Positions 5,452 through 30,025 are shown, counted from the stretch's first letter. The stretch is 32,000 nucleotides of DNA from Geobacter sulfurreducens PCA (GCF_000007985.2 NC_002939.5:3570001-3602000), one strand, 5' to 3'. Notes: generated from the sequence alone by a model not told the origin. Program-made: numbers and translations.

Positions 5452-6525
5452 ATGGCAAAAAAACTATTCATTCCCGGACCGGTCGACGTCCACCCCGAGA
5501 TCCTCCAGGCCATGGCCTCTCCCATGATCGGCCACCGCATGCCCGAATACGCAGCGCTCCACGGGCGGGTAACCGCCGGCCTCAAGCGGGTACTGGCCAC
5601 GGACGGACGGGTATTTCTCGCCACATCGAGCGCCTTCGGCGTCATGGAGGGGGCGGTACGGAACCTGGTGGCGAAGCGGTGCGTCAACTTCTGCAACGGC
5701 GCTTTTTCCGACAAATGGCACGACGTGACCAAGCGCTGTGGCAAAGAGGCCGATGCGGTCAAGGTCGAGTGGGGCAAGCCGATCACCCCCGAAATCGTGG
5801 ATCAGGCACTGGCCACGGGCAAGTACGACGCTATCACCCTCATCCACAACGAGACCTCCACCGGGGTCATGTCCCCCCTGCCGGAGATTGCCCGGGTCCT
5901 GCGGAACTATCCCGACGTGGTCTCCATTATCGACACCGTCTCGTCCATGAGCGCGCTCCCCGTTCCCGTGGACGAACTGGGCATCGACTGCTGCATCTTC
6001 GGGGTTCAGAAGGCCTTTGCCCTGCCGCCGGGATTGGCCGTTTTCACCGCCAGTGACAAGGCCCTGGCCCGTGCCAGGACAGTAGAGGGGCGCGGCTACT
6101 ATTTCGACTTCCTTGAATTCGAAGCCAACGACGAAAAAAATAACACCCCCTCGACCCCTTGCATCTCCCACATTTATGCCATGGACCGACAACTGGAGCG
6201 ATTCTTCGCCGAAGGCCTCGAGCAGCGATGGGCACGGCACCGGCAACTGGCGGGAATGGTGCGCGAGTGGGTCACCGACCGGGGATTCGGGTTCTTTGCC
6301 GATGAGCCCTACCGCTCCGTAACCCTCACCTGCGCCCTCAACACCCGGGACACGGACCTGGCCCGGTTGAAGAAGATGCTCGGCGAACGCGGCTACGCCT
6401 TTGACGACGGCTACGGCAAGATCAAGGGTAAGACCTTCCGCGTTGCCCACATGGGAGACATGCAACGGACCGACCTGGAAGAGTTCCTGGCAACGGCCGA
6501 TGAGTGCCTGGCAGAGCTTGGCTAG
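5452..6525 (+). CDS. Class V pyridoxal-phosphate aminotransferase (serine-glyoxylate / phosphoserine aminotransferase-like)
   Basis: GGAGAG RBS. N-terminus LFIPGPVDVHPEILQAM, NETSTGV, and FGVQKAF (PLP lysine context) are typical of AGXT/SerC-like class V enzymes. Confidence 0.88.
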   Translation: MAKKLFIPGPVDVHPEILQAMASPMIGHRMPEYAALHGRVTAGLKRVLATDGRVFLATSSAFGVMEGAVRNLVAKRCVNFCNGAFSDKWHDVTKRCGKEADAVKVEWGKPITPEIVDQALATGKYDAITLIHNETSTGVMSPLPEIARVLRNYPDVVSIIDTVSSMSALPVPVDELGIDCCIFGVQKAFALPPGLAVFTASDKALARARTVEGRGYYFDFLEFEANDEKNNTPSTPCISHIYAMDRQLERFFAEGLEQRWARHRQLAGMVREWVTDRGFGFFADEPYRSVTLTCALNTRDTDLARLKKMLGERGYAFDDGYGKIKGKTFRVAHMGDMQRTDLEEFLATADECLAELG

Positions 6526-6639
6526 CCTATTGCTCGCGCCGATCGCGCCGGCCGCTTCCATTTGCCGTTCCTCATGGTACAAATTTGTGTTATGGTAGAG
6601 TTCATTGTGCCGCTCACCCCTATGTGCAGGAGGGCTTGA

Positions 6640-7092
6640 ATGAACAGCAAAATGATCCTGCTGGTGGAAGACAATCCCGACGACGAGGTTCTGACCCTCC
6701 GCGCCCTCGGCAAACATGCCATTACGCCCGATGTGACGGTAGTGCGCGACGGGGTGGAGGCCCTGGACTTCCTCTTCGGGACAGGCTCCTACAGCGACCG
6801 GGATCTGAGCATCATGCCGAAGCTAGTGCTGCTCGACCTGAAACTGCCCAAGGTGGACGGCCTCGAGGTTTTGCGCCGGCTGAGGGCCGACCAGCGGACG
6901 CGGCTCCTGCCGGTGGTGGTCTTCACCTCCTCCAACGAGGAGCAGGACATCCTCGAATGTCACAACCTCGGCGCCAACAGCTACATCCGCAAGCCGGTGG
7001 ACTTCAATCAACTCAGTGAAGCCCTGCGGCTCATCGGCACCTACTGGCTGAACCTCAACCTCACTCCCAAGTCCGCCGGCGCGGCACGATAG
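6640..7092 (+). CDS. Single-domain response regulator (CheY-like receiver)
   Basis: ILLVEDNPDDEVL, LVLLDLKLPKVDG (phospho-acceptor Asp context), VVVFTSS and YIRKP are canonical REC motifs. AGGAGG RBS. Confidence 0.9.
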   Translation: MNSKMILLVEDNPDDEVLTLRALGKHAITPDVTVVRDGVEALDFLFGTGSYSDRDLSIMPKLVLLDLKLPKVDGLEVLRRLRADQRTRLLPVVVFTSSNEEQDILECHNLGANSYIRKPVDFNQLSEALRLIGTYWLNLNLTPKSAGAAR

Positions 7093-7155: not shown

Positions 7156-9150
7156 ATGGAACGCTTCAGACTGGCTAGCGATTACGAGCCCCGCGGCGAC
7201 CAGCCCCGGGCCATTGCCGAACTCTCGGAAGGGATTGTCAGGGGCGACCGGGATCAGGTGCTCCTGGGGGTCACCGGCAGCGGCAAAACGTTTACCATGG
7301 CCAACGTCATCGCCGCCGTGAACCGCCCCGCCTTGGTCCTGGCCCCCAACAAGACCCTGGCGGCCCAGCTCTATGGCGAATTCCGGGAACTATTTCCGGA
7401 CAATGCCGTGGAATATTTCGTCTCATACTACGACTACTACCAGCCGGAAGCCTACATCCCCACCACCGACACCTTCATCGAGAAGGATTCCTCCATCAAC
7501 GACGAGATCGACAAGTTGCGCCATGCGGCCACGCGGAGCCTGCTGACCCGGCGCGACGTGATCATCGTTGCCTCGGTGTCATGCATATACGGCATCGGCT
7601 CCCCGGCCGAGTACCAGGCCATGCACATCTTCTTTCACCAGGGGGACGAGTACGGCCGGGACGAACTGCTGCGGAAGCTGGTCGACATCCAGTATGAACG
7701 GAATGATCTGGACTTCCACCGGGGGACCTTCCGGGTGCGGGGGGACATCGTGGAGATATTCCCGGCCCACGAGGGGGAGCGGGCCTACCGGATCGAGTTC
7801 TTCGGCGACACGGTGGACGCGATCAGCGAAATCGATCCCTTGCGAGGCGTGGTGGTCCAGCGCCTGACCAAGTGCGCCGTCTATCCGGCTTCCCATTACG
7901 TGGCGACGCGCGAGACCCTGGACCGGGCCATGGAGGAGATCCGCACCGACCTGCGGGAGCGACTCCAGTGGTTCCGGGAGCGGAACATGCTCGTGGAGGC
8001 CCAGCGGCTGGAACAGCGAACAATGTTCGACCTGGAGATGATGGAGGAGATGGGATTCTGCCAGGGGATCGAGAACTATTCCCGCTACTTCGACGGCCGG
8101 ACGCCGGGGGAGCCCCCCTACACCCTGCTCGACTACTTCCCCCGTGACTTCATCCTCTTCGTGGACGAATCCCACATTACCGTCTCCCAGGTAGGGGGGA
8201 TGTACCGGGGGGACCGGAGCAGGAAAGAAACTTTGGTGAACTACGGCTTCCGCCTACCGGCGGCCCTGGACAACCGGCCCCTCACCTTCGGGGAGTTCAC
8301 CGAACGGCTCAACCAGAGCGTCTACGTCTCGGCCACCCCGGCCGACTACGAGCTGCAGCAGAGCGGCGGCGTGGTGGTGGAACAGGTGATCAGGCCCACG
8401 GGCCTCCTGGACCCGGTCATCGAGGTCCGTCCTGCCACGGAGCAGGTGGACGATCTCCTGCACGAGGTCCGGGAGACCACGGCCCGGGGCGAACGGGTGC
8501 TCGTAACCACCCTCACCAAGCGGATGGCCGAGGACCTGACCGATTACTACCGGGACCTGGGGGTGCGGGTCAGATACCTCCATTCCGACATAGACACTAT
8601 CCAGCGGATGCAGATCATCCGTGATCTGCGCATGGGGGAGTTCGATGTCCTGGTCGGCATCAACCTCCTGCGGGAAGGGCTCGACATTCCCGAAGTGTCG
8701 CTGGTGGCGATTCTCGACGCCGACAAGGAGGGGTTCCTCCGCTCCGCCCGTTCCCTCATCCAGACCTGTGGCCGGGCCGCTCGCAACGTGAACGGCAGGG
8801 TCATCATGTACGCCGATACCGTAACCGGCTCCATGCAGAGCTGCCTCGACGAAACCGCCCGGCGTCGTGCTCTTCAGGAGGCCTTCAACACCGAACACGG
8901 CATCACGCCCCAGACCGTGAAAAAGGGGCTGCGGACCATCCTGGAGTCCATCGAGGAGCGTGATTACTACACCGTCGCCGCCGTTGCCGAGACTCGGGAA
9001 GAGTACATCTCTGCCGACGAGATACCGAAAAGGGTGAAGAAGCTCCGCAAGGAGATGCTCGACGCGGCAAAGAAGCTGGAGTTCGAACGGGCGGCCGATC
9101 TCAGGGATCAGATCAAAAAACTGGAAGAAATGGAGCTGCGGCTGCGCTGA
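7156..9150 (+). CDS. uvrB: Excinuclease ABC subunit B
   Basis: GVTGSGKTF Walker [11 protein letters not shown], helicase motifs, and the C-terminal UVR motif [13 protein letters not shown]. 664 aa. Confidence 0.97.
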
Positions 9151-9171: not shown

Positions 9172-9867
9172 ATGAAGGAACCACGCGTACTGCTCGTTGA
9201 TGACGAGCGATTCTTCCTGAATCTCCAGCAGGAGTTTCTGGCGGATTCCCCCGTGCGGGTCATCACCGCCCAGAACGGCCGGGAGGCGCTTGACATGATC
9301 CAGCGGGACCGGCCGGGCATCGTCTACCTGGATCTACGGATGCCTGAACTTGATGGTGCCGCCTGTTGCTCCGCCATCAAGAACAACCCCGATCTCAGGA
9401 ACACGCCGGTGGTCATGGTGGTGAGCGAGGGTAAGCCCCGCGATCGGGAGGTCTGCCTGGATGCCGGGTGCAACGGCATCATCAGCAAGCCGCTGGACCG
9501 GATTCAGTTCCTGTCGGTGGGTCGGCGGCTCTTCCCGGCCATTGAACGCCGCCAGCCCCGCTATCCCTTCTCGGCCCTCGCCTTCTTCCGGATCCGGGAT
9601 ACCAGCTTCCACGGCACCATCGCCGACATCAGCCTCGGCGGCGCCTATATCGCGTGTCGCTGCGACCTCGCCGCAAAGGAGGATATCCGTCTCGGCTTTA
9701 TCCTCGACAACACGGCGGTCGTCGAATGCCGGGCGCGGGTCGCCTGGACGAACCAGGGGGGAATGCGCCCCCGCAAGAGCCTTCCGGACGGATTCGGCGT
9801 CCAGTTCCAGGCCATGGAGCCTCCTCACCAGGAGGTTGTCCGGCAGCTCGTGGCGAGGCTCGGATGA
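9172..9867 (+). CDS. Response regulator with C-terminal PilZ (c-di-GMP binding) domain
   Basis: REC motifs: LLVDDE, VYLDLRMPELDG and ISKPL. PilZ motifs: RRQPR (9547-9561) and DISLGG (9625-9642). Confidence 0.88.
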   Translation: MKEPRVLLVDDERFFLNLQQEFLADSPVRVITAQNGREALDMIQRDRPGIVYLDLRMPELDGAACCSAIKNNPDLRNTPVVMVVSEGKPRDREVCLDAGCNGIISKPLDRIQFLSVGRRLFPAIERRQPRYPFSALAFFRIRDTSFHGTIADISLGGAYIACRCDLAAKEDIRLGFILDNTAVVECRARVAWTNQGGMRPRKSLPDGFGVQFQAMEPPHQEVVRQLVARLG

Positions 9868-11090
9868 TCCGCCCCGCCTGGCTCACCCGCCCCAGTCTCT
9901 CCTGGGCACTCTACGACTTCGCCAACACAATCTTCTCCATGAGCGTGGTGACGCTCTATTTCCCCTTGTTCCTCGTCCAGACCCTGGGCTACCGCGAGTA
10001 CTGGCTCTCCCTGGGGCTATCGCTCTCCATGGGACTTGCCGCCGTGGCCAGCCCCTTCGTGGGGAGCGCCTCCGATCGGCGCATCGGCAAAAACGTGATA
10101 CTGGCGGTCGCCACATCCCTCTGCTGCATCGCAACCCTTCTCATTCCCGCGTCGGGGCATCTGGCAGGCGTCCTTGCCGCCTTCGTGGCCGCCAACTTCC
10201 TCTACCAGGTATCCCTCGTGGCCTACGATTCACTCCTCCCTTCGGCCACCGACGAAGGGCACTATGGACCGGTATCCGGATTCGGCGTTGCCCTGGGCTA
10301 CATCGGAACGTTCCTGGCGTTGATCATCGGCAAACTCTTGGTGACCACCCCGGCGGACAATGGCCGGGTATTCCTGCCCACGGCGATCTGCTTTCTCCTT
10401 TTCGCCCTGCCCTGCTTCTTCGTCAAAGACCTGAAACGCAGCCAAACCTCCCCGATCCGGGTTGCCGACACGGCCCGGGAAATCATCCGCGACCGGGACC
10501 TGCGCTGGTACTTCGCCGGCCACCTGCTCTACCTGGACGCGGTGAACACCGTGATTGCCTTCATGGCCGTCTTTCTGGTGAAAGTGGGAGGGTTCTCCCA
10601 GGAAGCGGGGGAAGTGAACTATTTCCTCATGTTCTCGACCATCTTCGCGGTCATCGGCGGTCTCTTCTGGGGGTGGCTCGTGCGACGCCGGGGGGCGCGG
10701 GTGGGGCTCCTGGCGACCCTTGCCCTCTGGATCGTCGCCCTCGGCATGGTCTGCCTGCCACTGGCCAAGGAACACTACTGGATACTGGGTCCCCTTTCCG
10801 GCATCGCCCTGGGAGGGGTCTGGGCGTGCGACCGGCCGCTGCTCCTGGACATGGTCCCCCGGGAACGGGCCGGGAGCTTCTTCGGCTTCTACTACCTCAC
10901 CGGCAAGTTCTCGTCGGTGGTGGGACCATTGCTGTTCGGCGCCATCCTCGCGCTCCCCCTCGGCACCGAGGCGATCCGCTACCGGCTCGCCTTCTTCTCG
11001 CTGCTTATCATGGTAATCGTCGCCACGGCCTGTATCGCCCGCATCCGCCCGAAGCAGGCCGCGCCGCAGCTTCAGGCCGGCGACCCGTGA
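9864..11090 (+). CDS. MFS transporter (UMF1/Atg22-like family)
   Basis: The in-frame ATG at 9864 forms an ATGA overlap with the PilZ gene stop. The N-terminus MIRPAWLTRPSLSWALYDFANTIFSMSVV is typical of the UMF1 subfamily. About 12 hydrophobic helices. The 9654 start in the track would overlap 210 nt of the upstream gene. Confidence 0.82.
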   Translation: MIRPAWLTRPSLSWALYDFANTIFSMSVVTLYFPLFLVQTLGYREYWLSLGLSLSMGLAAVASPFVGSASDRRIGKNVILAVATSLCCIATLLIPASGHLAGVLAAFVAANFLYQVSLVAYDSLLPSATDEGHYGPVSGFGVALGYIGTFLALIIGKLLVTTPADNGRVFLPTAICFLLFALPCFFVKDLKRSQTSPIRVADTAREIIRDRDLRWYFAGHLLYLDAVNTVIAFMAVFLVKVGGFSQEAGEVNYFLMFSTIFAVIGGLFWGWLVRRRGARVGLLATLALWIVALGMVCLPLAKEHYWILGPLSGIALGGVWACDRPLLLDMVPRERAGSFFGFYYLTGKFSSVVGPLLFGAILALPLGTEAIRYRLAFFSLLIMVIVATACIARIRPKQAAPQLQAGDP

Positions 11091-11121
11091 TACCCCATGC
11101 ATGTTCGGAAAAGGAGTAATC

Positions 11122-11799
11122 ATGAAAAAAGACATCCTTGAAAAGGGGGCCATCCTCCAGCGTGACCGGGAGACCTACGCCATCGCCCCCCACATCCCCG
11201 GCGGGATCACCGATACGGCAACCCTGCGCAAGCTCTGCGATGTGGCCGACAAGTACGGCGTGAAGGAGTTGAAGCTCACCTCTGCCCAACGCATCGCCCT
11301 CTTCGGCGTAAAGGAGGAGGATCTGGACGCCATCTGGTCCGATCTCGACCAGCAGCCGGGCGCAGCCATCGGCCTCTGCGTCCGGAGCGTCAAGATCTGT
11401 CCCGGCACCACCTGGTGCAAGCGGGGTGTGCAGGATTCGGTCTCCCTGGGATTGAAGATCGATGCCATCTACCACGCCATGGAACTGCCCAACAAAATGA
11501 AGATGGGGATTTCAGGATGCATGCTCAACTGCGCCGAGACCATGCTGAAGGATGTGGGAGTGGTCGGTACTCCCAAGGGGTGGCGGATCTACGTGGGGGG
11601 CAATGCGGGGGCACGGCCCCGCATCGGCGACCTCCTGGTGGAACTGGGTCCGGATGAAGACAAGGTTCTCGCCGTGATTGCGGACCTTGTGGAGTGGTAC
11701 CGCTCTTCGGGCAGCGAGCAGCGGCTGGGCCGCGTGGTGGAGCAGATGGGGTTCGACGCCTTCAAAACCGCCGTGCTGGGAGCGAAAGCAACCCCCTGA
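11122..11799 (+). CDS. Small sirohaem/[4Fe-4S] sulfite- or nitrite-reductase-like protein (~225 aa, low-molecular-weight assimilatory SiR type)
   Basis: AAGGAG RBS 5 nt before the ATG at 11122. Cys motifs CPGTTWC (CX5C) and CMLNC (CX3C) form the sirohaem-FeS ligand pattern. Confidence 0.8.
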   Translation: MKKDILEKGAILQRDRETYAIAPHIPGGITDTATLRKLCDVADKYGVKELKLTSAQRIALFGVKEEDLDAIWSDLDQQPGAAIGLCVRSVKICPGTTWCKRGVQDSVSLGLKIDAIYHAMELPNKMKMGISGCMLNCAETMLKDVGVVGTPKGWRIYVGGNAGARPRIGDLLVELGPDEDKVLAVIADLVEWYRSSGSEQRLGRVVEQMGFDAFKTAVLGAKATP

Positions 11800-11832: not shown

Positions 11833-14800
11833 TCAAAAAAGGTCCAGCTGCTCCCCCTTCGGCTTCCGCCGGCCGCCACGGCCCGGCTCCGGCTGCCGGA
11901 TCAACCGTCCAGGGATTTCTCCCGCGAAGCGGGAAAGCGGCCGCTCAGCAGGACTGACCCAGGGGCGTTCAGAGGAGGCGCTGAGCACGAGCGTCTCCTT
12001 CGCCCGGGTCATACCCACATAGAAAAGCCGCCGTTCCTCCTCCACATCCACGTCCCGCCAGAGAGTGCACGGGATAAGCCCCTCCTCGCACCCCGCCAGG
12101 AAGACCACGGGGAATTCCAGACCCTTGGAGGCATGGAGCGTCATGAGCGCCACCGCCTCGGCCCGCTCGTCATAAACCGTTTCGGCGGCATACTCCCGCA
12201 GATGCCGGTCAAAGGCGACGATGTCCCGGCCGAAGCTTCCGGCAAGGGCCAGGAGCCGCCTACAGTCGGCATGCCCCTGATCCGTGCCGAACAGGGTCAG
12301 GGCTTCACCCAGGGCCGGAGCAATTCCCTCACGACCGGCCACGGACCGGAAGCGTTCAAGGAGAGCAGTCAGCTCGGCCATCCGATGCGCAACAGGGGGC
12401 GGCAGCTCGACACCGGCCACGAGCGCCGGGAAATCGCCGGTCAGGGGAAGGGCCTCTTCCAGCCGGCGGATGGTACCCTCGCCGACCCCCGGCAGATCCT
12501 GTGCCAGAGCCAGCCAGTCGGCCAGCTCCGTACTCCCCGCCGCTGCTCGGACAAACCGGGTGGCCGCGCCCGCGACCGGGCCGAGGAAGTAGGGAACGGC
12601 GCCCACCAACTGGAACGGAATCCCCCGCCGGTCCAGGGCGTTGGCCAACTCGTCGGCCTGCCGCGCCAACCGGTAGAGTATGGCGATGTCGCCGAAGCTC
12701 CGGCGGCTGTCCTGGTCGCCGCCCCGCCCCGAGGCGATGGAGAAACTGCTGATCCCCCCCATGAGCTCCTCGATGCGCCGAACGATAAACTCGGCCTCCG
12801 CCGCCGGCGTCGGAGCCCTGTACAACTCGATCGCTCCCTCCCGCGCCGTGGTAGGCGTTAGACTGATGCCGCTCCTGAGCCGGTTGTGGGCGATGACGGC
12901 CGATGCGGCCTCGACGAGGGGCGCCGCCGACCGGTAGTTGCGGCTGAGGTCCAGCCGCCGGGTGGCGGGAAGGTCGGCGAAACGGAAGAAAAAAGAGGGA
13001 TCACTACCCCGGAAGCCATAGATGGCCTGGTCTGGGTCGCCGATGGCGAAGATCGTGGCCTCTTCCCCCAGTATCTCCACCAAGGCGTACTGGGGAGCGT
13101 TCAGGTCCTGGAATTCGTCCACGAAGAGATGGGCGACGCCGGCGCACACCCGCCGCCGGAAGGTCTCGTCGCCTCTCAGGCGGCGGACCAGGGCCGGGAC
13201 CACGTCGTCCAAGTCCATGGCGCCGCGCCGGGCCAGTTCGTCAAGATAGAAACGCACCGGCTCCGGTGCGTCCCCGCCATTGTCGCGATGCAGAAAATCG
13301 GCGATCTCCGCGGCCAAGCCGCTTCGCTCCCGGACACCGATTTCGGGAAAGAGGCGCCGCAACAGCCGCTCCCGGCTTTCGTCCCCCACCACGACCCGGT
13401 CGGGCTCCTCGCGCCTGAGCCAGTCGAGGCAGAAGCGGTGAAAAGTGCCGACAAACACCTGTCCGGCAGCCTCGCCCGCCACCGCGGCCAATCGCTCCCG
13501 CACCTCGGCGGCTGCCCGGTTCGTGAAGGTGATGGCGCAGACCCGGGCCGGGTCCGTGCCCGGCGCAGCAAGCAGTGCCGCAAGCCGCGCCACCAGGGTG
13601 TAGGTTTTGCCGGTACCCGGTCCAGCGGCCACCAGCACCCGGGATGCATCGCAGGCGAGCGCCTCGGCCTGGCCGGGATCGGGTCCCGCGGCAGGCGCCG
13701 GATCGGGCGGGGTCACCGATCTCCGCCCGCTGGCTGCCGGAGGCCGGCTGATCGCTTTGGAACGCCCCCGCCGGGATGGAGCGCCGTCGCTGAAAAGCCC
13801 CCCCTGTCCTGACAGCCGAGCCACCTCACCCTCCTCGAAGACCTTGATGGTTCCGTACTCGCCGTCAAAGCCCCCCTGGCGGATCACCCGGCCCTCCCTC
13901 ATCCGGACGATCGCCTCGGCCAGAACCGGCGACACGACGGCAATCTCGCCAGGATCGACCCGGAGGAGGATATCCAACTCCGAACCGAACCGCTCGATCA
14001 GCCGGACGTAGTGGCTCATGACCTGCTTGGAGGCCGGGCCCACTCCGAGGATTTCTCCCACCACTTCCGTCAGCGGCGCCAGGCTGAAAAACGTAGGGGC
14101 ATCGTCGGGAAAGAGCGGCGTATCCCGGTCGGCCAGTTCCAGCACCCGGTGGAGCACCCCCACAGTGAGGGGACGGCCGCACACGGGGCAGCGTCCCCCA
14201 TGCCGGCGCGTCTCGTCGGGCTCGAAGCGGATGCCGCAGTCCCGGTGGCCGTCCATGTGGTACTTCCCTTCCTCGGGAAAGAATTCCACGGTACCGCGGA
14301 AGGTTTCGCGGTGGTTGCCCTTCAGGGCGTCGCGCAGTGAAAAGAAATCGAAGCCGGTGCTGAAGAGATTGGCCTCGCGCCCCAGTCGGGACGGGGAATG
14401 GCAGTCAGAATTGGAGATGAGGGCAAACCGGTCGAGGGCGGAAATCAGCCGGTTCATGTCCGGATCGGACGAAAGGCCGGTTTCCAGGGCAAAGACGTGA
14501 GGGGCAAGGTCGCCGAAGCACTCTTCCACCGTATCGAAGCCGGACTTGGAGCCGAACAGGGAAAACCAGGGGGTCCAGATGTGGGCCGGCACCAGGAATC
14601 CGTCCGGCGTGGCCTCCAGCAGGATTTCCAGCAGATTCCGGGAGTCGAGGCCTAGGATGGGGCGGCCGTCGGACTCGATATTGCCGATGCCGGCCAACCG
14701 GGCGTTGACCCGTTCGGCAGCGGCAAAGTCGGGGACGTAGAGGAGGTTGTGGACCTTGCGCACCGCCCCGTGCCGCTTGTAGATGCAGCTGATCTCCGCG

Positions 14801-15069
14801 GTGAGCATGAAACGGACCGGTGCGGTTGAAGGAGCGAGTCCGGCCAAGGGGGCGGGGGCATTCTCGTCCCGCAGCCTGAAGAAGCCCGGTTCGGCCGGCT
14901 CCAACACCTCCCGCAGCCGGGCAAACCACCCCGGATGGGTAAAGTCGCCCGTGCCCACCACCTGAATCCCCTTCACCCTCGCCCACCCGGCAAGCCCGGC
15001 AGGGTCGCACTCCTTGCTCGTTGCCCGGGAAAAGGGCGAATGGATATGGAGATCGGCGCAATAGTCCAT
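11833..15069 (-). CDS. Fusion protein: N-terminal EndoQ-like PHP-domain nuclease plus C-terminal UvrD/PcrA-type SF1 helicase
   Basis: N-terminal ~415 aa (aa 1 to ~415): DLHIHSPFSRATS, PAHIWTPWFSLFGSKSGFD, ETGLSSDP, SNSDCHS, FFPEEGKYHMDGHRDC...CPVCG, GGFDGEYG. Next is a Pro/Ala/Arg linker. Helicase part: AGPGTGKT (13603-13626), VDEFQDLN, GDPDQAIYGFRG, LSRNYRS, HASKGLEF, YVGMTRA. Confidence 0.88.
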   Translation of the reverse strand: MDYCADLHIHSPFSRATSKECDPAGLAGWARVKGIQVVGTGDFTHPGWFARLREVLEPAEPGFFRLRDENAPAPLAGLAPSTAPVRFMLTAEISCIYKRHGAVRKVHNLLYVPDFAAAERVNARLAGIGNIESDGRPILGLDSRNLLEILLEATPDGFLVPAHIWTPWFSLFGSKSGFDTVEECFGDLAPHVFALETGLSSDPDMNRLISALDRFALISNSDCHSPSRLGREANLFSTGFDFFSLRDALKGNHRETFRGTVEFFPEEGKYHMDGHRDCGIRFEPDETRRHGGRCPVCGRPLTVGVLHRVLELADRDTPLFPDDAPTFFSLAPLTEVVGEILGVGPASKQVMSHYVRLIERFGSELDILLRVDPGEIAVVSPVLAEAIVRMREGRVIRQGGFDGEYGTIKVFEEGEVARLSGQGGLFSDGAPSRRGRSKAISRPPAASGRRSVTPPDPAPAAGPDPGQAEALACDASRVLVAAGPGTGKTYTLVARLAALLAAPGTDPARVCAITFTNRAAAEVRERLAAVAGEAAGQVFVGTFHRFCLDWLRREEPDRVVVGDESRERLLRRLFPEIGVRERSGLAAEIADFLHRDNGGDAPEPVRFYLDELARRGAMDLDDVVPALVRRLRGDETFRRRVCAGVAHLFVDEFQDLNAPQYALVEILGEEATIFAIGDPDQAIYGFRGSDPSFFFRFADLPATRRLDLSRNYRSAAPLVEAASAVIAHNRLRSGISLTPTTAREGAIELYRAPTPAAEAEFIVRRIEELMGGISSFSIASGRGGDQDSRRSFGDIAILYRLARQADELANALDRRGIPFQLVGAVPYFLGPVAGAATRFVRAAAGSTELADWLALAQDLPGVGEGTIRRLEEALPLTGDFPALVAGVELPPPVAHRMAELTALLERFRSVAGREGIAPALGEALTLFGTDQGHADCRRLLALAGSFGRDIVAFDRHLREYAAETVYDERAEAVALMTLHASKGLEFPVVFLAGCEEGLIPCTLWRDVDVEEERRLFYVGMTRAKETLVLSASSERPWVSPAERPLSRFAGEIPGRLIRQPEPGRGGRRKPKGEQLDLF

Positions 15070-15152: not shown

Positions 15153-15281
15153 TCACTTCTTATCGCAGCATCCCCCCTCGCACCCCTGGCAATGCCCCTT
15201 CTTCTTCCAGACGGAGCGGTAGAGGAGCCAAGCCGCCACCCCGAGGATGGCGGCCGAGATGATCATGTCGGTGGTTCCCAT
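15153..15281 (-). CDS. FeoB-associated Cys-rich membrane mini-protein (42 aa), not in the ORF track
   Basis: The ATG lies 3 nt after the feoB stop. My hand translation is MGTTDMIISAAILGVAAWLLYRSVWKKKGHCQGCEGGCCDKK. It has one TM helix followed by a basic, Cys-rich tail, as in the FeoB-associated Cys-rich family. Confidence 0.7.
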   Translation of the reverse strand: MGTTDMIISAAILGVAAWLLYRSVWKKKGHCQGCEGGCCDKK

Positions 15282-19667: not shown

Positions 19668-20717
19668 TCAGGAATGGTTTTTCCGCCGACCCAGGTCCGG
19701 CCGATCCGATTCCCCGACATGGGCGACCGTGGCGGTAAGGCAACTCAGGCAATCCCTAAGCGTGCAGACACCACACGAATGGTGCATGAAGACTGGGATA
19801 CCATTCTGCTTCGCCACGGCCATGGCCTCGTTCTTCACCCGGTGGGACACCTTGTTGGTGAAGATGACCAAGGCATCGAAGCGCTTCAATTTGACGGCGA
19901 TATTGTTTTCCGACTGGGAGAACATTCGCAGCTCCACCCCTGAACGGACCGCCTCTTCCCGATAGTGTTTCTCCAGGCGGTCCATGCCGCCGATCACCGC
20001 AATGCACATGGCCTTACCCCCATAACTATGACTTTCAATTTCATCAAAACCGACAACTGGGCGTGGTGACCCGTCCGCCAGACAATCGAGCGCCGACGTG
20101 CATCTGTTCAAGCGTTCCGCCATCCGAGCCCGGCAACAGCGAAAGACTTCGGCAAGGCGCAGACTCTCCCTGGGATCGCCGAATATCTTCCACGGCCCCT
20201 GGCAGGCGAACGGAATCCTCACCAACCCCATGAATGCCGCCACATCTTTAAGGGGATAGCCTAGAAACACCCCGATCTCATGAGGGAATCGGTCACCGTC
20301 AATGCGAGTCGACAGTTCCGTCAGCACTTCATCAAGCCCGGTTGCAGCACCGTATCCCGCCCGCGCCAGCACTGCTGAAGCACTGGGGCGGCGCAGCAGC
20401 GCCTCAAGGGCTTCCGGGCGATAAAGAAGCAGCAACAATGAATCCCCACGGTCGGACAACTCCCGGACGGCAAGGCCGCTCTCGCCCAGCACCATCGCCC
20501 CCCACTGCTTCCAGAGGACGTAAAGGTTGCGGCCGCATGCACGGGTACGGTTGGCGATACCGATCAGGTTGGCGGGCTTTTCGCCCGCAAGCACCTCAGC
20601 CGCTTCCAGCGCGAGAAACGACGCAAGACACTCCCGGGGCTCATCGAACCGTTCCGCCAGATCGTGCCAGACCGGCCGCCGGACACCGTGCCGCATTTCC
20701 GAAATCATCTGCCCCAT
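19668..20717 (-). CDS. Uncharacterised cytoplasmic protein, DUF3793-like N-domain fused to DUF2325-like C-domain with a terminal Cys cluster
   Basis: EVLAGEKPANL and FPHEIGVFLGYPLKDV...CQGPWKIF resemble DUF3793. CIAVIGG...DALVIFTNKVSHRVKNEAMAVAKQNGIPV resembles DUF2325. The C-terminus carries CGVC-x4-CLSC. It starts 18 nt after the pccH stop. Confidence 0.75.
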   Translation of the reverse strand: MGQMISEMRHGVRRPVWHDLAERFDEPRECLASFLALEAAEVLAGEKPANLIGIANRTRACGRNLYVLWKQWGAMVLGESGLAVRELSDRGDSLLLLLYRPEALEALLRRPSASAVLARAGYGAATGLDEVLTELSTRIDGDRFPHEIGVFLGYPLKDVAAFMGLVRIPFACQGPWKIFGDPRESLRLAEVFRCCRARMAERLNRCTSALDCLADGSPRPVVGFDEIESHSYGGKAMCIAVIGGMDRLEKHYREEAVRSGVELRMFSQSENNIAVKLKRFDALVIFTNKVSHRVKNEAMAVAKQNGIPVFMHHSCGVCTLRDCLSCLTATVAHVGESDRPDLGRRKNHS

Positions 20718-28038: not shown

Positions 28039-28067
28039 TACATAGCATCATAACTGTGGCTTGTCAA
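28039..28067 (-). promoter_or_regulatory. Candidate sigma70 promoter for the large envelope gene operon
   Basis: On the minus strand: TTGACA (28067-28062), 17 nt spacer, TATGTA (28044-28039). Confidence 0.45.
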
Positions 28068-28147
28068 CGGGGAATACCGGCGCGAACCCCTGTAATTACG
28101 CGATAAACGGCCCAACGAATCGACGGCTGCCCGTGGATGGCTTCGCC

Positions 28148-28176
28148 TTCCCAAAACTGCTGCCTGCCGCTATACT
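28148..28176 (+). promoter_or_regulatory. Candidate promoter giving a leaderless or near-leaderless uvrC transcript
   Basis: TTCCCA (28148-28153), 17 nt spacer, TATACT (28171-28176). The ATG lies 7 nt downstream at 28184, with no Shine-Dalgarno sequence in between. Confidence 0.3.
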
Positions 28177-28183
28177 AGCATTC

Positions 28184-30025
28184 ATGTTCGACACCAAGCG
28201 ACTGACAACCCTCCCCGATGCACCGGGTGTCTACCTCATGAAGGGGAACGGCGGGGACATTCTTTACGTGGGAAAGGCCAAGAGCCTCCGTAAACGGGTC
28301 CGCTCCTATTTCAGCAAGGGGGGAGAGTCACGCTACCATATCCGGTTCCTGGTGGGCCGGGTCGCCGACATCGACGTAATCGTCACCGACACAGAGAAGG
28401 AAGCCCTCCTCCTCGAGAACACCCTTATCAAGGAACATCGCCCCCGGTACAATCTGGACCTGCGGGACGACAAAACCTACTTTTCCCTCCGACTCGACAT
28501 GAACGAGGAGTTTCCCCGCCTGACCATCGTGAGACGGCCGGGCAGGGACGGAGCCCGCTACTTCGGCCCCTATTCCTCTGCTTCTGCCGCGCGGGAGGTC
28601 CTCAAGCAGCTGTACAAGCTCTTCCCGCTCCGCCACTACCCGCTGGAGAGCTGCCGCCGTCGCAGACGCCCCTGCCTCTTTTACCAGCTCAGGCAGTGCG
28701 CCGCCCCCTGTCACGGGCTCATCTCGGGCGAAGATTACCAATCACTGGCAGAAGGCGCGGCCTTGTTCCTTGCAGGAAAAAACAGCGACCTAACCCGCCT
28801 CTACAGGCAGCGCATGGCCGCAGCAGCAGCGGATGAACGGTATGAGGACGCCGCCCGCTACAGGGACTTGATCCGCGCCATTGAGGTCACCGTAGAGAAG
28901 CAGAAGATGGTAGCCGGCGACGGCGACACGGACGTAGTCGGATTCTTTCGCGACGCCACAGACCTTTCCGTCTCGATCCTCTTCTACCGCGGCGGCCGCC
29001 TCATGGGGAGCCGCAACTACCTCCTGGACTGGGAAATGGATGACGCCGAAGGGCTCTCGTCGTTCCTGTCCGGCTACTACAACAGGGATGTCGTCATCCC
29101 CGATGAAATCCTCATCCCCTTCACCGTGGACGACACGGACCCCCTCGGCGAACTGCTAACGGAACGGCGAGGGAAAAAGACCGTTCTCCGCCACCCCGTG
29201 CGAGGGACCAAGGCAGAACTGGTCAGGCTGGCGGCGAGAAACGCCGAGGCGTACCTGCATGAAAAGCGGGAAAAGGACTCCGGCATGGAGCAGGTCCTCG
29301 GAGAGCTCAAGGAGAAGCTCCACCTGACCAATCTCCCCCGACGAATCGAATGCTACGACATCTCCACCATCCAGGGACGCTATTCCGTGGGAAGCAGGGT
29401 CCGGTTTCAAAATGGCGCTCCGGACAAGGCGGGGTACCGCCGCTACCGGATACGGACCGTTCCCGGCACCGACGACTTCGCCATGATGCACGAAGTTCTG
29501 TCCCGGCGCTTCAGGGACGGACACGGCGGGGACGGTCGGCCGGACCTCATTGTGATTGACGGGGGAATGGGGCAGTTGAATGTGCTGACCGCAATCCTGG
29601 AGGAGCTGGGGCTTCACGGCATTGACGCCGTCTCCTTGGCAAAAAGCAGGGTAGAGCGAAATATGTCCGATAATGAGGTGGTCCGGAGCGACGAACGGGT
29701 CTTTCTCCCCGGCCGCCGCAACCCGGTGGTGCTCCGGCAGAACGGTGCACCGCTTCTGCTCCTGGCACGAATCCGGGACGAAGCTCATCGCTTTGCCATA
29801 ACCTATCACCAGAAGCTGCGCGGTAAAGGATCGATCCGATCGAGCCTGGAAGGCATTCCCGGCATCGGTGAAAAGCGCAAGCGTGAACTGCTGAAACGTT
29901 TCGGCAGCATCAGGGCACTGCGCCAGGCGGACCGAGAACAGCTTGCCGCCGTCCCCTCCGTCTCCCCCGCCTTGGCGGATGCCATCTGGAAGGCCCTTCA
30001 CGGCGAAGAGCCCGAGGCGCCATGA
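28184..30025 (+). CDS. uvrC: Excinuclease ABC subunit C
   Basis: GIY-YIG N-terminus [32 protein letters not shown] begins ~10 aa after the ATG at 28184. UVR motif [14 protein letters not shown]-terminal HhH motif [13 protein letters not shown]. The track's TTG at 28061 overlaps the opposite-strand promoter. Confidence 0.93.

Follow-up and report, generated by a model that had tools for sequence, protein, structure and literature searches.

What does a protein do that joins an EndoQ-like nuclease and a UvrD-like helicase in one polypeptide? Such a gene lies on the minus strand of the 32,000-nucleotide (nt) stretch of the Geobacter sulfurreducens PCA genome analyzed here (GCF_000007985.2 NC_002939.5:3570001-3602000; the whole stretch is called the window, and positions are counted from its first letter). 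EndoQ incises DNA immediately 5' of deoxyuridine (dU), deoxyinosine (dI), deoxyxanthosine (dX), and apurinic/apyrimidinic (AP) sites, leaving a 3'-OH and a 5'-phosphate, and published schemes of the EndoQ pathway, including that of a 2021 review, postulate that some helicase acts once the strand has been nicked. An earlier note, made from the sequence, had recognized the fusion and proposed either a self-contained enzyme that nicks and unwinds deaminated DNA or a nuclease-helicase acting on foreign DNA. Our analysis leads us to think that the protein is probably a clamp-tethered nick-and-unwind enzyme of alternative excision repair, self-contained and chromosomally inherited, and all catalytic and recognition residues of both modules are intact and essentially invariant.

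The gene is one uninterrupted open reading frame (ORF) with an ATG start that encodes 1,078 amino acids (aa). The 120 best database homologues are 55 to 95% identical to the product, and their alignments span 93 to 100% of the 1,078 aa, mostly 100%; among named organisms, Geobacter pickeringii comes nearest (73% identity), and one contig reaches 95%. Because the homologues are collinear from end to end and the N termini agree (MDYCADLHIHS in the window protein, MDYIADLHIHS in homologues), the fusion is neither a frameshift nor an assembly merger. The single fused polypeptide of the earlier note is thereby borne out, every motif quoted there was located in the translation, and its Walker A coordinates were exact.

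Residues 5 to 418 match the chains 5zb8 and 7k30 of Pyrococcus furiosus EndoQ (PfuEndoQ) over all three EndoQ domains in a PDB sequence search (E = 8.5e-56), with 7k31 to 7k33 among the further matches, and a Foldseek search of the PDB aligns the predicted fold of the N-terminal half to 5zb8 and 7k30 at template modeling (TM) scores of 0.76 to 0.77. Because the EndoQ part is not represented in the local Pfam-A (the scan matched helicase families and, under threshold, two zinc motifs, and nothing else), the identity of this half was drawn from PDB sequence, PDB fold, and NCBIfam. The helical domain finishes in the beta-hairpin motif GGFDGEYG, and its region corresponds to Pfam PF27218 ("MJ0043_C"), a family annotated on homologues in precomputed results of a newer Pfam.

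The residues known to matter in PfuEndoQ were mapped by two independent alignments, HMMER to 5zb8 and MAFFT. The archaeal metal ligands H8, H10, E76, H84, H139, and D193 (PMC5961232) correspond to H8, H10, E92, H107, H163, and D222 of the window protein, which has H224 in addition. The archaeal lesion pocket comprises H139, T142, E167, L168, G169, L170, N191, and D193 (PMC5961232), with S171 as its gate (PMC8307549); T142, E167, L168, G169, L170, S171, and N191 become T166, E196, T197, G198, L199, S200, and N220, and T197 occupies a position of main-chain contact. The wedge residue W144 is W168, and the four cysteines of the archaeal zinc site (C249, C252, C268, and C271; PMC5961232) align with H275, C278, C294, and C297, so the zinc finger described in the earlier note is present, but with an H-C-C-C ligand set where the archaeal finger is C4. 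Across 187 aligned complete fusions, drawn from many phyla, the metal ligands, T166, E196, G198, L199, S200, and the three zinc cysteines occur in all 187, T197 in 186, H275 in 185 (the remaining two have Cys), W168 in 179, and N220 in 166 (89%); N220 excepted, metal, pocket, and wedge residues are thus 96 to 100% conserved. The earlier note had let its reading stand or fall with the catalytic and zinc-finger residues, and in orthologues these are conserved.

The linker that follows has no consensus in the alignment, and the predicted local distance difference test (pLDDT) score of the AlphaFold model is below 50 over residues 396 to 458. Its extent as given in the earlier note (13660-13812, residues 420 to 470) was roughly right, but its end lies earlier, near residue 462 (nt 13684), because the invariant glutamine of the helicase Q motif is Q467. 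In the C-terminal half, Pfam finds UvrD-helicase (3.8e-48), UvrD_C (4e-39), and AAA_19 (9e-23), the first two far over their cut-offs, which is the result that the earlier note had expected of a hidden Markov model search there. PDB sequence matches are to PcrA (1pjr, 4.5e-61), UvrD, Mycobacterium tuberculosis UvrD1, and Rep. The SF1A motif set (Q, I, Ia, II, III, IV, V, and VI) is complete, with key residues of all these motifs about 100% conserved, and K488, D651/E652, Q681, R687, R713, and R1022 are conserved in 183 to 187 of the 187 fusions. Foldseek pairs this half with DNA-bound UvrD, PcrA, and Rep at TM scores of 0.72 to 0.74 (about 650 columns for UvrD-DNA), the best superposition being on closed, DNA-bound UvrD at 0.74. 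All four subdomains (1A, 1B, 2A, and 2B) are present; 2B is poorly conserved in sequence among the 187 fusions, and the rest is not variable. Against the NCBIfam equivalogs, the score is 274.5 bits for PcrA (cut-off, 911), 245 to 250 for UvrD (cut-offs, 965 to 1144), and 231 for Rep (cut-off, 951), and these scores place the helicase in an SF1A subfamily of its own. The earlier identification of the two halves as an EndoQ/TIGR00375-type PHP nuclease and a UvrD/PcrA-type SF1A helicase thus agrees with sequence matches, predicted fold, and invariant residues alike. An AlphaFold2 model built from 32 homologues (mean pLDDT, 77; predicted TM score [pTM], 0.54) consists of two confident bodies, the disordered linker, and a disordered tail at residues 1061 to 1078, and Foldseek listed no PDB chain that contains both halves.

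The extreme C terminus adds a third element, which the earlier note overlooked. The protein ends in ...RRKPKGEQLDLF-COOH, and its last five residues, QLDLF, conform to the published bacterial beta-clamp-binding consensus QL[D/S]LF (Shiraishi et al. 2016, Supplementary Fig. S1). In the archaeal enzymes TkoEndoQ and PfuEndoQ, the C terminus has a PCNA-interacting protein (PIP) box that binds PCNA with a dissociation constant of 55 nM, and ring-form PCNA stimulates incision (PMC4858679). An alignment of 32 homologues shows no variation at Q1074, L1077, or F1078. The pattern Q-x-x-[LMIF]-[FLWY] was sought in the final 15 residues of 111 proteins with complete C termini, each representing a cluster at 50% identity, with a shuffle of each tail as the control; it occurs in 95 of the 111, compared with a mean of 2.9 and a maximum of 7 in the shuffles, and forms the very C terminus in 63 of those 95. 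The column consensus of the 111 tails is (K/R)n-Q-L-S-L-F.

Motors of the UvrD/PcrA type travel 3' to 5' along single-stranded DNA and work at nicks introduced by partners, which are UvrC or MutH/MutL for UvrD and RepD for PcrA. From EndoQ incision, the action of UvrD-type motors at nicks, and QLxLF docking, we propose the following sequence of events. The QLDLF peptide would dock the protein on the beta sliding clamp, and clamps on DNA, for example behind the replication fork, would recruit and stimulate the enzyme as PCNA does archaeal EndoQ. Where a base is deaminated or lost (dU, dI, dX, or an AP site), the EndoQ module would flip the lesion into its pocket and cut directly 5' of it, producing a 3'-OH and a lesion-bearing 5'-phosphate. 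After nicking, the module may tend to remain on its product, as PfuEndoQ does (PMC5961232). The tethered helicase would then load at the nick on the intact strand, translocate 3' to 5', and peel off the strand with the lesion at its 5' end, dislodging the nuclease as well. A clamp-bound polymerase would extend the 3'-OH, the 5'-nuclease of Pol I or another 5' exonuclease would cut the flap, and ligase would close the nick. We infer the substrate range, the clamp binding, the order of events, the strand engaged by the helicase, and the downstream enzymes. Strengthened by the clamp motif, the invariant active sites, and the housekeeping distribution described below, nick-and-unwind repair is in our judgment the best explanation of the gene.

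The main rival reading keeps lesion recognition and assigns the motor another task. The helicase might be a clamp-tethered accessory or turnover motor, a replisome translocase like UvrD, Rep, or PcrA that clears proteins or scans DNA while EndoQ surveys for dU and dI, so that ATP would drive the movement or release of the product-bound nuclease and not the removal of the damaged strand. The clamp motif implies replication-associated DNA, PfuEndoQ stays on nicked product, the helicase is equidistant from PcrA, UvrD, and Rep, and EndoQ forms without a helicase exist. The 2B subdomain, the least conserved part, regulates unwinding versus translocation in UvrD-like enzymes. On the other side, the C-terminal region of PcrA/UvrD past about residue 660 is missing, since the alignment stops at that point and what follows as the tail is the clamp peptide. 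Sequence cannot separate strand excision from scanning or release, and the two roles overlap and could both hold. We consider a motor of this kind, in place of strand excision, unlikely though worth keeping in view.

The distribution of the family bears on both its history and its role. A search of 1.84 billion proteins with the N-terminal domain returned 3,676 cluster representatives at E <= 1e-3 and 1,081 at <= 1e-30; the best 150 of the 3,676 are overwhelmingly 950 to 1,216 aa long, that is, fusions. In a scan of one genome per species, at least 600 genomes contain an EndoQ-like domain, and the best 80 of these at least 600 loci (labeled L001 to L080) were used for locus analyses. These 80 come from Desulfobacterota, Actinomycetota, Myxococcota, Planctomycetota, Verrucomicrobiota, and Acidobacteriota, and from Bacteroidota, Chloroflexota, Binatia, Melainabacteria, Endomicrobia, and Alphaproteobacteria. 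Over the at least 600 genomes, the domain occurs in about ten phyla, mainly as the fusion. About 60 of the 80 loci encode complete fusions with the clamp tail, 11 encode stand-alone forms, and 1 is split. The homologues are labeled in databases only as "UvrD-helicase domain-containing protein," "TIGR00375 family," or "DNA helicase II/PcrA." One member, on a contig binned as "Pedobacter sp." (JBAYZR010000225.1, locus L007), clusters tightly with Geobacteraceae and is 71% identical to the window sequence; the contig is probably mis-binned.

The 11 stand-alone genes (L001, L006, L007, L008, L012, L016, L018, L022, L034, L072, and L080) encode proteins of 417 to 453 aa that are up to 74% identical to the N-terminal domain of the window protein and retain every catalytic, pocket, and zinc residue; a recognizable C-terminal clamp motif is mostly missing from them, and no helicase lies within 8 kb of any of the 11. 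The idea that short EndoQ-only ORFs are split genes was therefore dropped, since only L029 has a helicase downstream in another frame. At that locus (384-2957 on a contig of an Oceanidesulfovibrio metagenome-assembled genome) the EndoQ part ends after 352 aa, which points to a frameshifted pseudogene or, alternatively, to an error in the sequencing. In a neighbor-joining tree of the N-terminal domain, rooted on PfuEndoQ, computed without support values, and sampled with a tilt toward the query, stand-alone forms appear at no fewer than eight separate spots within the fusion clade, and the tree otherwise groups by taxonomy. Provisionally, the most economical history would start from an ancestral fusion that was inherited for the most part vertically and lost its helicase repeatedly. 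The broader claim, that the fusion of EndoQ, helicase, and clamp peptide is the ancestral and predominant form of bacterial EndoQ and defines a widespread, so far unrecognized single-polypeptide route of clamp-guided excision, we put forward tentatively, as slightly less likely than not.

Outside cellular chromosomes the family is almost absent. The N-terminal domain was found in none of 50,697 phage genomes and in none of 2.9 million viral contigs, and in 1 of 72,556 plasmids, where the hit is a stand-alone EndoQ of about 28% identity on a 733-kb Brevibacillus replicon (a megaplasmid). The gene also lacks a constant neighborhood. All-against-all clustering of the ORFs within 5 kb at 74 loci gave no conserved partner gene, the top cluster (9 of the 74) being a generic sensor protein, and the neighbors of the window gene do not recur beside it in L001 to L080 save for one feoB match in L073. 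Because no neighbor is conserved across phyla, we regard the protein as self-contained. The fusion gene raises G+C to 68 to 69% across window positions 12001 to 14000, compared with a window average of about 62%; its third-codon-position G+C (GC3) of 0.81 is like that of its neighbors (first and second positions [GC1 and GC2], 0.71 and 0.50), so the excess reflects a composition rich in Ala, Arg, Gly, and Pro and gives no obvious sign of foreign origin. From its distribution and context we conclude that the fusion gene is a self-sufficient chromosomal housekeeping gene and neither a mobile nor a defense module.

These results disfavor the action on foreign DNA that the earlier note had offered as its alternative, in which a nuclease-helicase attacks dU-containing phage or deaminated DNA, or rescues the chromosome after deaminase toxins, in a Cas3-like manner. 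The nick-then-unwind logic does resemble that of Cas3, a review relays a suggested antiviral role of Bacillus EndoQ, which phage Ugi does not inhibit (PMC8307549), and the helicase core matches the GajB and DRT-helicase models of PADLOC. Those two models, however, match the UvrD core and leave the N-terminal domain uncovered; any UvrD would match them in this way, and a defense role was rejected as a conclusion from the hits. Neither a GajA-like nor another defense partner is present, the neighbors are housekeeping genes, and the neighborhood is not conserved. The family is missing from phages and viral contigs and essentially from plasmids, its tree tracks taxonomy, unlike patchy defense islands, and tails that bind the clamp are characteristic of proteins of replication and repair. 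An anti-foreign-DNA or anti-toxin function is accordingly quite improbable.

More doubtful still is a PHP module with other chemistry, such as a 3'-phosphoesterase or 3'-5' exonuclease like those of PolX or Pol III, acting in end processing as in RecB, AddA, and AdnB. The PHP fold does serve several phosphoesterase activities, the strict TIGR00375 cut-off was missed, and Foldseek lists AddA, RecB, and AdnB, but through the helicase half. The similarity to EndoQ covers all three domains (residues 5 to 418); the G198/L199/S200 pocket, the W168 wedge, and the zinc domain, all EndoQ-specific, are essentially invariant; Pfam finds no PD-(D/E)XK domain in the protein; and no AddB, RecC, or AdnA partner lies nearby. 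Finally, a fusion created by a sequencing or assembly error or a recent frameshift, for which the two frames of L029 could be cited, is refuted by the uninterrupted architecture of about 1,000 to 1,200 aa in 120 of 120 close homologues, most of the 150 representatives, and the independent assemblies of about 60 of the 80 species genomes, and has next to no chance of being true.

Several observations weigh against nick-and-unwind repair, or at least temper it. TIGR00375, which the earlier note expected to recognize the N-terminal domain, does so (E = 3e-53), but its 181.5 bits lie under the strict cut-off of 326.6; the model is a hypothetical equivalog made for stand-alone proteins, and as judged from the sequence matches (E = 1e-54 to solved EndoQ) the homology of this half to EndoQ is unambiguous despite the missed cut-off. 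Scores under the TIGR00375, PcrA, UvrD, and Rep cut-offs mean that the protein is not an orthologue of any characterized enzyme. The lesion specificity (dU, dI, dX, and AP sites) is extrapolated from an archaeal enzyme about 34% identical to the EndoQ module. The QLDLF clamp-docking peptide is a prediction from a five-residue motif. With a pTM of 0.54 and a disordered linker, the inter-domain arrangement of the AlphaFold model is unreliable and was left uninterpreted, and the sequence does not reveal in which direction, seen from the lesion, the DNA would be unwound. Judging from the functional-looking stand-alone relatives nested within the clade, the nuclease evidently does not need covalent coupling to work, and the uvrB/uvrC and polA links belong to particular lineages only. 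Full-text searches of the accessible literature gave no paper that describes or characterizes the fusion biochemically or genetically, as the earlier note had supposed; a passing mention in some primary EndoQ papers is possible.

Among known systems, archaeal EndoQ (PfuEndoQ PF1551 and TkoEndoQ TK0887; 5zb8 and 7k30 to 7k33) is closest in its nuclease, with the same metal ligands, lesion pocket, and wedge Trp, and both proteins have a sliding-clamp-binding peptide at the extreme C terminus. The window protein differs in having His in place of Cys as its first zinc ligand, in its limited identity (about 34%), in the SF1A helicase of about 600 residues between nuclease and clamp peptide, and in a clamp peptide of the bacterial QLxLF type where archaeal EndoQ has a PIP box. 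EndoQ of Bacillus pumilus and Bacillus subtilis represents the same nuclease family in bacteria; the B. pumilus enzyme reportedly nicks at uracil, hypoxanthine, and AP sites, as cited in PMC8307549 and the 2021 review, and bacterial EndoQ homologues have beta-clamp motifs at their C termini (PMC4858679 and its supplement). Firmicute EndoQ is about 400 aa long, lacks a helicase, and is about 28% identical (the Brevibacillus hit), whereas the closest stand-alone forms (69 to 74% identity) sit within the fusion clade, mostly without an obvious clamp motif.

The helicase motifs and the 1A/1B/2A/2B fold are shared with UvrD, PcrA, and Rep. These are recruited to a nick made by another protein, whereas the window protein has the nicking enzyme covalently attached; it also scores only 231 to 275 bits against their equivalogs (cut-offs, 911 to 1168), is divergent in 2B, and has the clamp peptide instead of the PcrA region past about residue 660. 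RecB, AddA, and AdnB likewise combine a UvrD-like SF1A motor and a nuclease in one polypeptide, but their nuclease is a C-terminal PD-(D/E)XK domain acting at double-strand ends in heteromeric complexes, whereas that of the window protein is an N-terminal PHP domain, predicted to be lesion specific, with no partner gene, and its RecB/AddA matches are confined to helicase motifs. Cas3 follows the same logic, in that its N-terminal metal-dependent nuclease makes a nick from which the attached 3'-to-5' helicase unwinds, with HD and SF2 folds in place of PHP and SF1A; Cascade recruits Cas3 to foreign DNA, and no CRISPR or defense context surrounds the window gene. EndoMS/NucS and MutL are repair nucleases tethered and activated by the clamp through a C-terminal QLxLF/PIP-like peptide, with other nuclease folds and lesions and no fused helicase. 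Gabija places the UvrD-like GajB beside GajA, an OLD-family ATPase/TOPRIM nuclease, and the window gene has no such partner.

Table 1. Features of the fusion gene, its product, and its surroundings in the window
Feature	Position (nt)	Strand	Residues	Remarks
Complete fusion gene	11833..15069	-	1078 aa	Stop codon, 11833-11835
EndoQ-type PHP catalytic domain	14278..15069	-	~1-264	HMMER vs 5zb8 and MAFFT
Zinc-binding domain	14077..14277	-	~265-331	Ligands H275, C278, C294, C297
EndoQ C-terminal helical domain	13816..14076	-	~332-418	PfuEndoQ alignment reaches 418
Disordered Pro/Ala/Arg/Ser-rich linker	13684..13815	-	~419-462	No consensus in alignment
SF1A UvrD/PcrA/Rep-like helicase core	11890..13683	-	463-1060	Pfam, PDB, Foldseek
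Disordered basic C-terminal tail	11836..11889	-	1061-1078	pLDDT < 50
QLDLF-COOH, putative beta-sliding-clamp-binding motif	11836-11850	-	1074-1078	Read directly
DLHIHSPFS		-	6-14	Quoted in the earlier note; present
PAHIWTPWFSLFGSKSGFD		-	161-179	Quoted in the earlier note; present
SNSDCHS		-	219-225	Quoted in the earlier note; present
FFPEEGKYHMDGHRDC		-	263-278	Quoted in the earlier note; present
CPVCG		-	294-298	Quoted in the earlier note; present
GGFDGEYG		-	399-406	Quoted in the earlier note; present
Helicase Q motif			Q467	
Walker A, AGPGTGKT	13603-13626	-	482-489	Quoted in the earlier note; present
Helicase motif Ia, TFT			514-516	
DEFQD	13105-13119	-	651-655	Quoted in the earlier note; present
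Helicase motif III, GDPDQAIYGFRG			677-688	Includes Q681, R687
Helicase motif IV, YR			712-713	
Helicase motif V			979-986	
Helicase motif VI, VGMTRA			1018-1023	Includes R1022
uvrB	7156-9150	+		
PilZ-domain response regulator	9172-9867	+		
MFS transporter	ends 11090	+		
Small NirA-like sulfite/nitrite reductase (NIR_SIR)	11101-11799	+	232 aa	Convergent with fusion gene
FeoB-associated peptide, Cys-rich ORF (MGTTDMIISAAILGVAAWLLYRSVWKKKGHCQGCEGGCCDKK)	15153-15281	-	42 aa	83 bp upstream of fusion gene
feoB and two feoA genes	upstream of fusion gene	-		Beyond the 42-aa peptide
uvrC	28061-30025	+		

The immediate surroundings of the window gene are shared with its nearest relatives. G. pickeringii and the 95%-identical contig both keep the block of uvrB, PilZ regulator, MFS transporter, and reductase in synteny (the regions noted are 11257-15976 in L081 and 9720-12881 in L082), and uvrC is near in both, 7.4 kb off in G. 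pickeringii. The upstream flank differs, with feoAB in the window and TonB/ExbBD or others in the relatives. Both uvrB and uvrC lie on the strand opposite to the fusion gene, which agrees with the earlier statement that neither is cotranscribed with it, and a scan for promoters and terminators around the gene found none exceeding shuffle expectation. In the Desulfovibrionales loci L041, L045, L046, and L072 (also L036 and L073), the order on one strand is EndoQ(-helicase), an ORF of about 300 aa, a DHH phosphoesterase, and polA, the stand-alone locus L072 having the DHH and polA part; Pol I of L046 contains an internal clamp-like motif, QFSLF. In this lineage the arrangement may tie the gene functionally to flap removal and resynthesis. 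The proximity to polA/DHH and to uvrB/uvrC is compatible with nick-and-unwind repair and amounts to lineage-local hints.

Some further features of the window were noted. The 42-aa ORF directly follows feoB and is shorter than the 60-aa minimum of the automatic ORF list; its counterpart in L082 carries Pfam FeoB_associated (PF12669). An ORF at 19668-20717 on the minus strand encodes a DUF3793-DUF2325 fusion (Pfam, 5e-43 and 3e-24) and adjoins an OprB-family porin and the feoAB operon. Two ORFs of atypical composition (GC3, 0.51 to 0.63; GC1, 0.75 to 0.78) appear to be spurious shadows, 9461-11119 (plus strand) of the PilZ regulator and MFS genes and 5464-6717 (minus strand) of 5452-6525 (plus strand).

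The 2016 supplement of Shiraishi et al. tabulates "EndoQ homologs" with clamp motifs at about positions 1050 to 1156 from Desulfobacter, Desulfobacterium, Proteiniphilum, Bilophila, Treponema, and other genera, and these long entries are evidently fusion proteins; the word "helicase" occurs neither in the supplement nor in the 2016 PCNA paper itself (PMC4858679), and the 2021 review restricts EndoQ to Euryarchaea and "a few bacteria." The fusion is an uncharacterized combination of two known families, and the window gene is one ordinary member of a large sequenced family.

If the fusion is indeed the ancestral bacterial form, then recognition, incision, and ATP-driven strand removal would require neither a glycosylase nor an AP endonuclease, nor any helicase brought in separately, the "missing helicase" step of the archaeal EndoQ pathway would be identified, and stand-alone bacterial EndoQs would have arisen by repeated loss of the helicase module. 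A lesion nickase joined to a strand-displacing motor could also serve methods of uracil- or inosine-directed nicking and strand displacement; EndoQ is already employed in APOBEC deamination assays. Should the mechanism hold, the pathway order of clamp, nick, and unwind would be encoded in one polypeptide, offering a testable model for the alternative excision repair of uracil and hypoxanthine and helping to explain how numerous anaerobes, actinomycetes, myxobacteria, and planctomycetes handle deamination and dUTP misincorporation.

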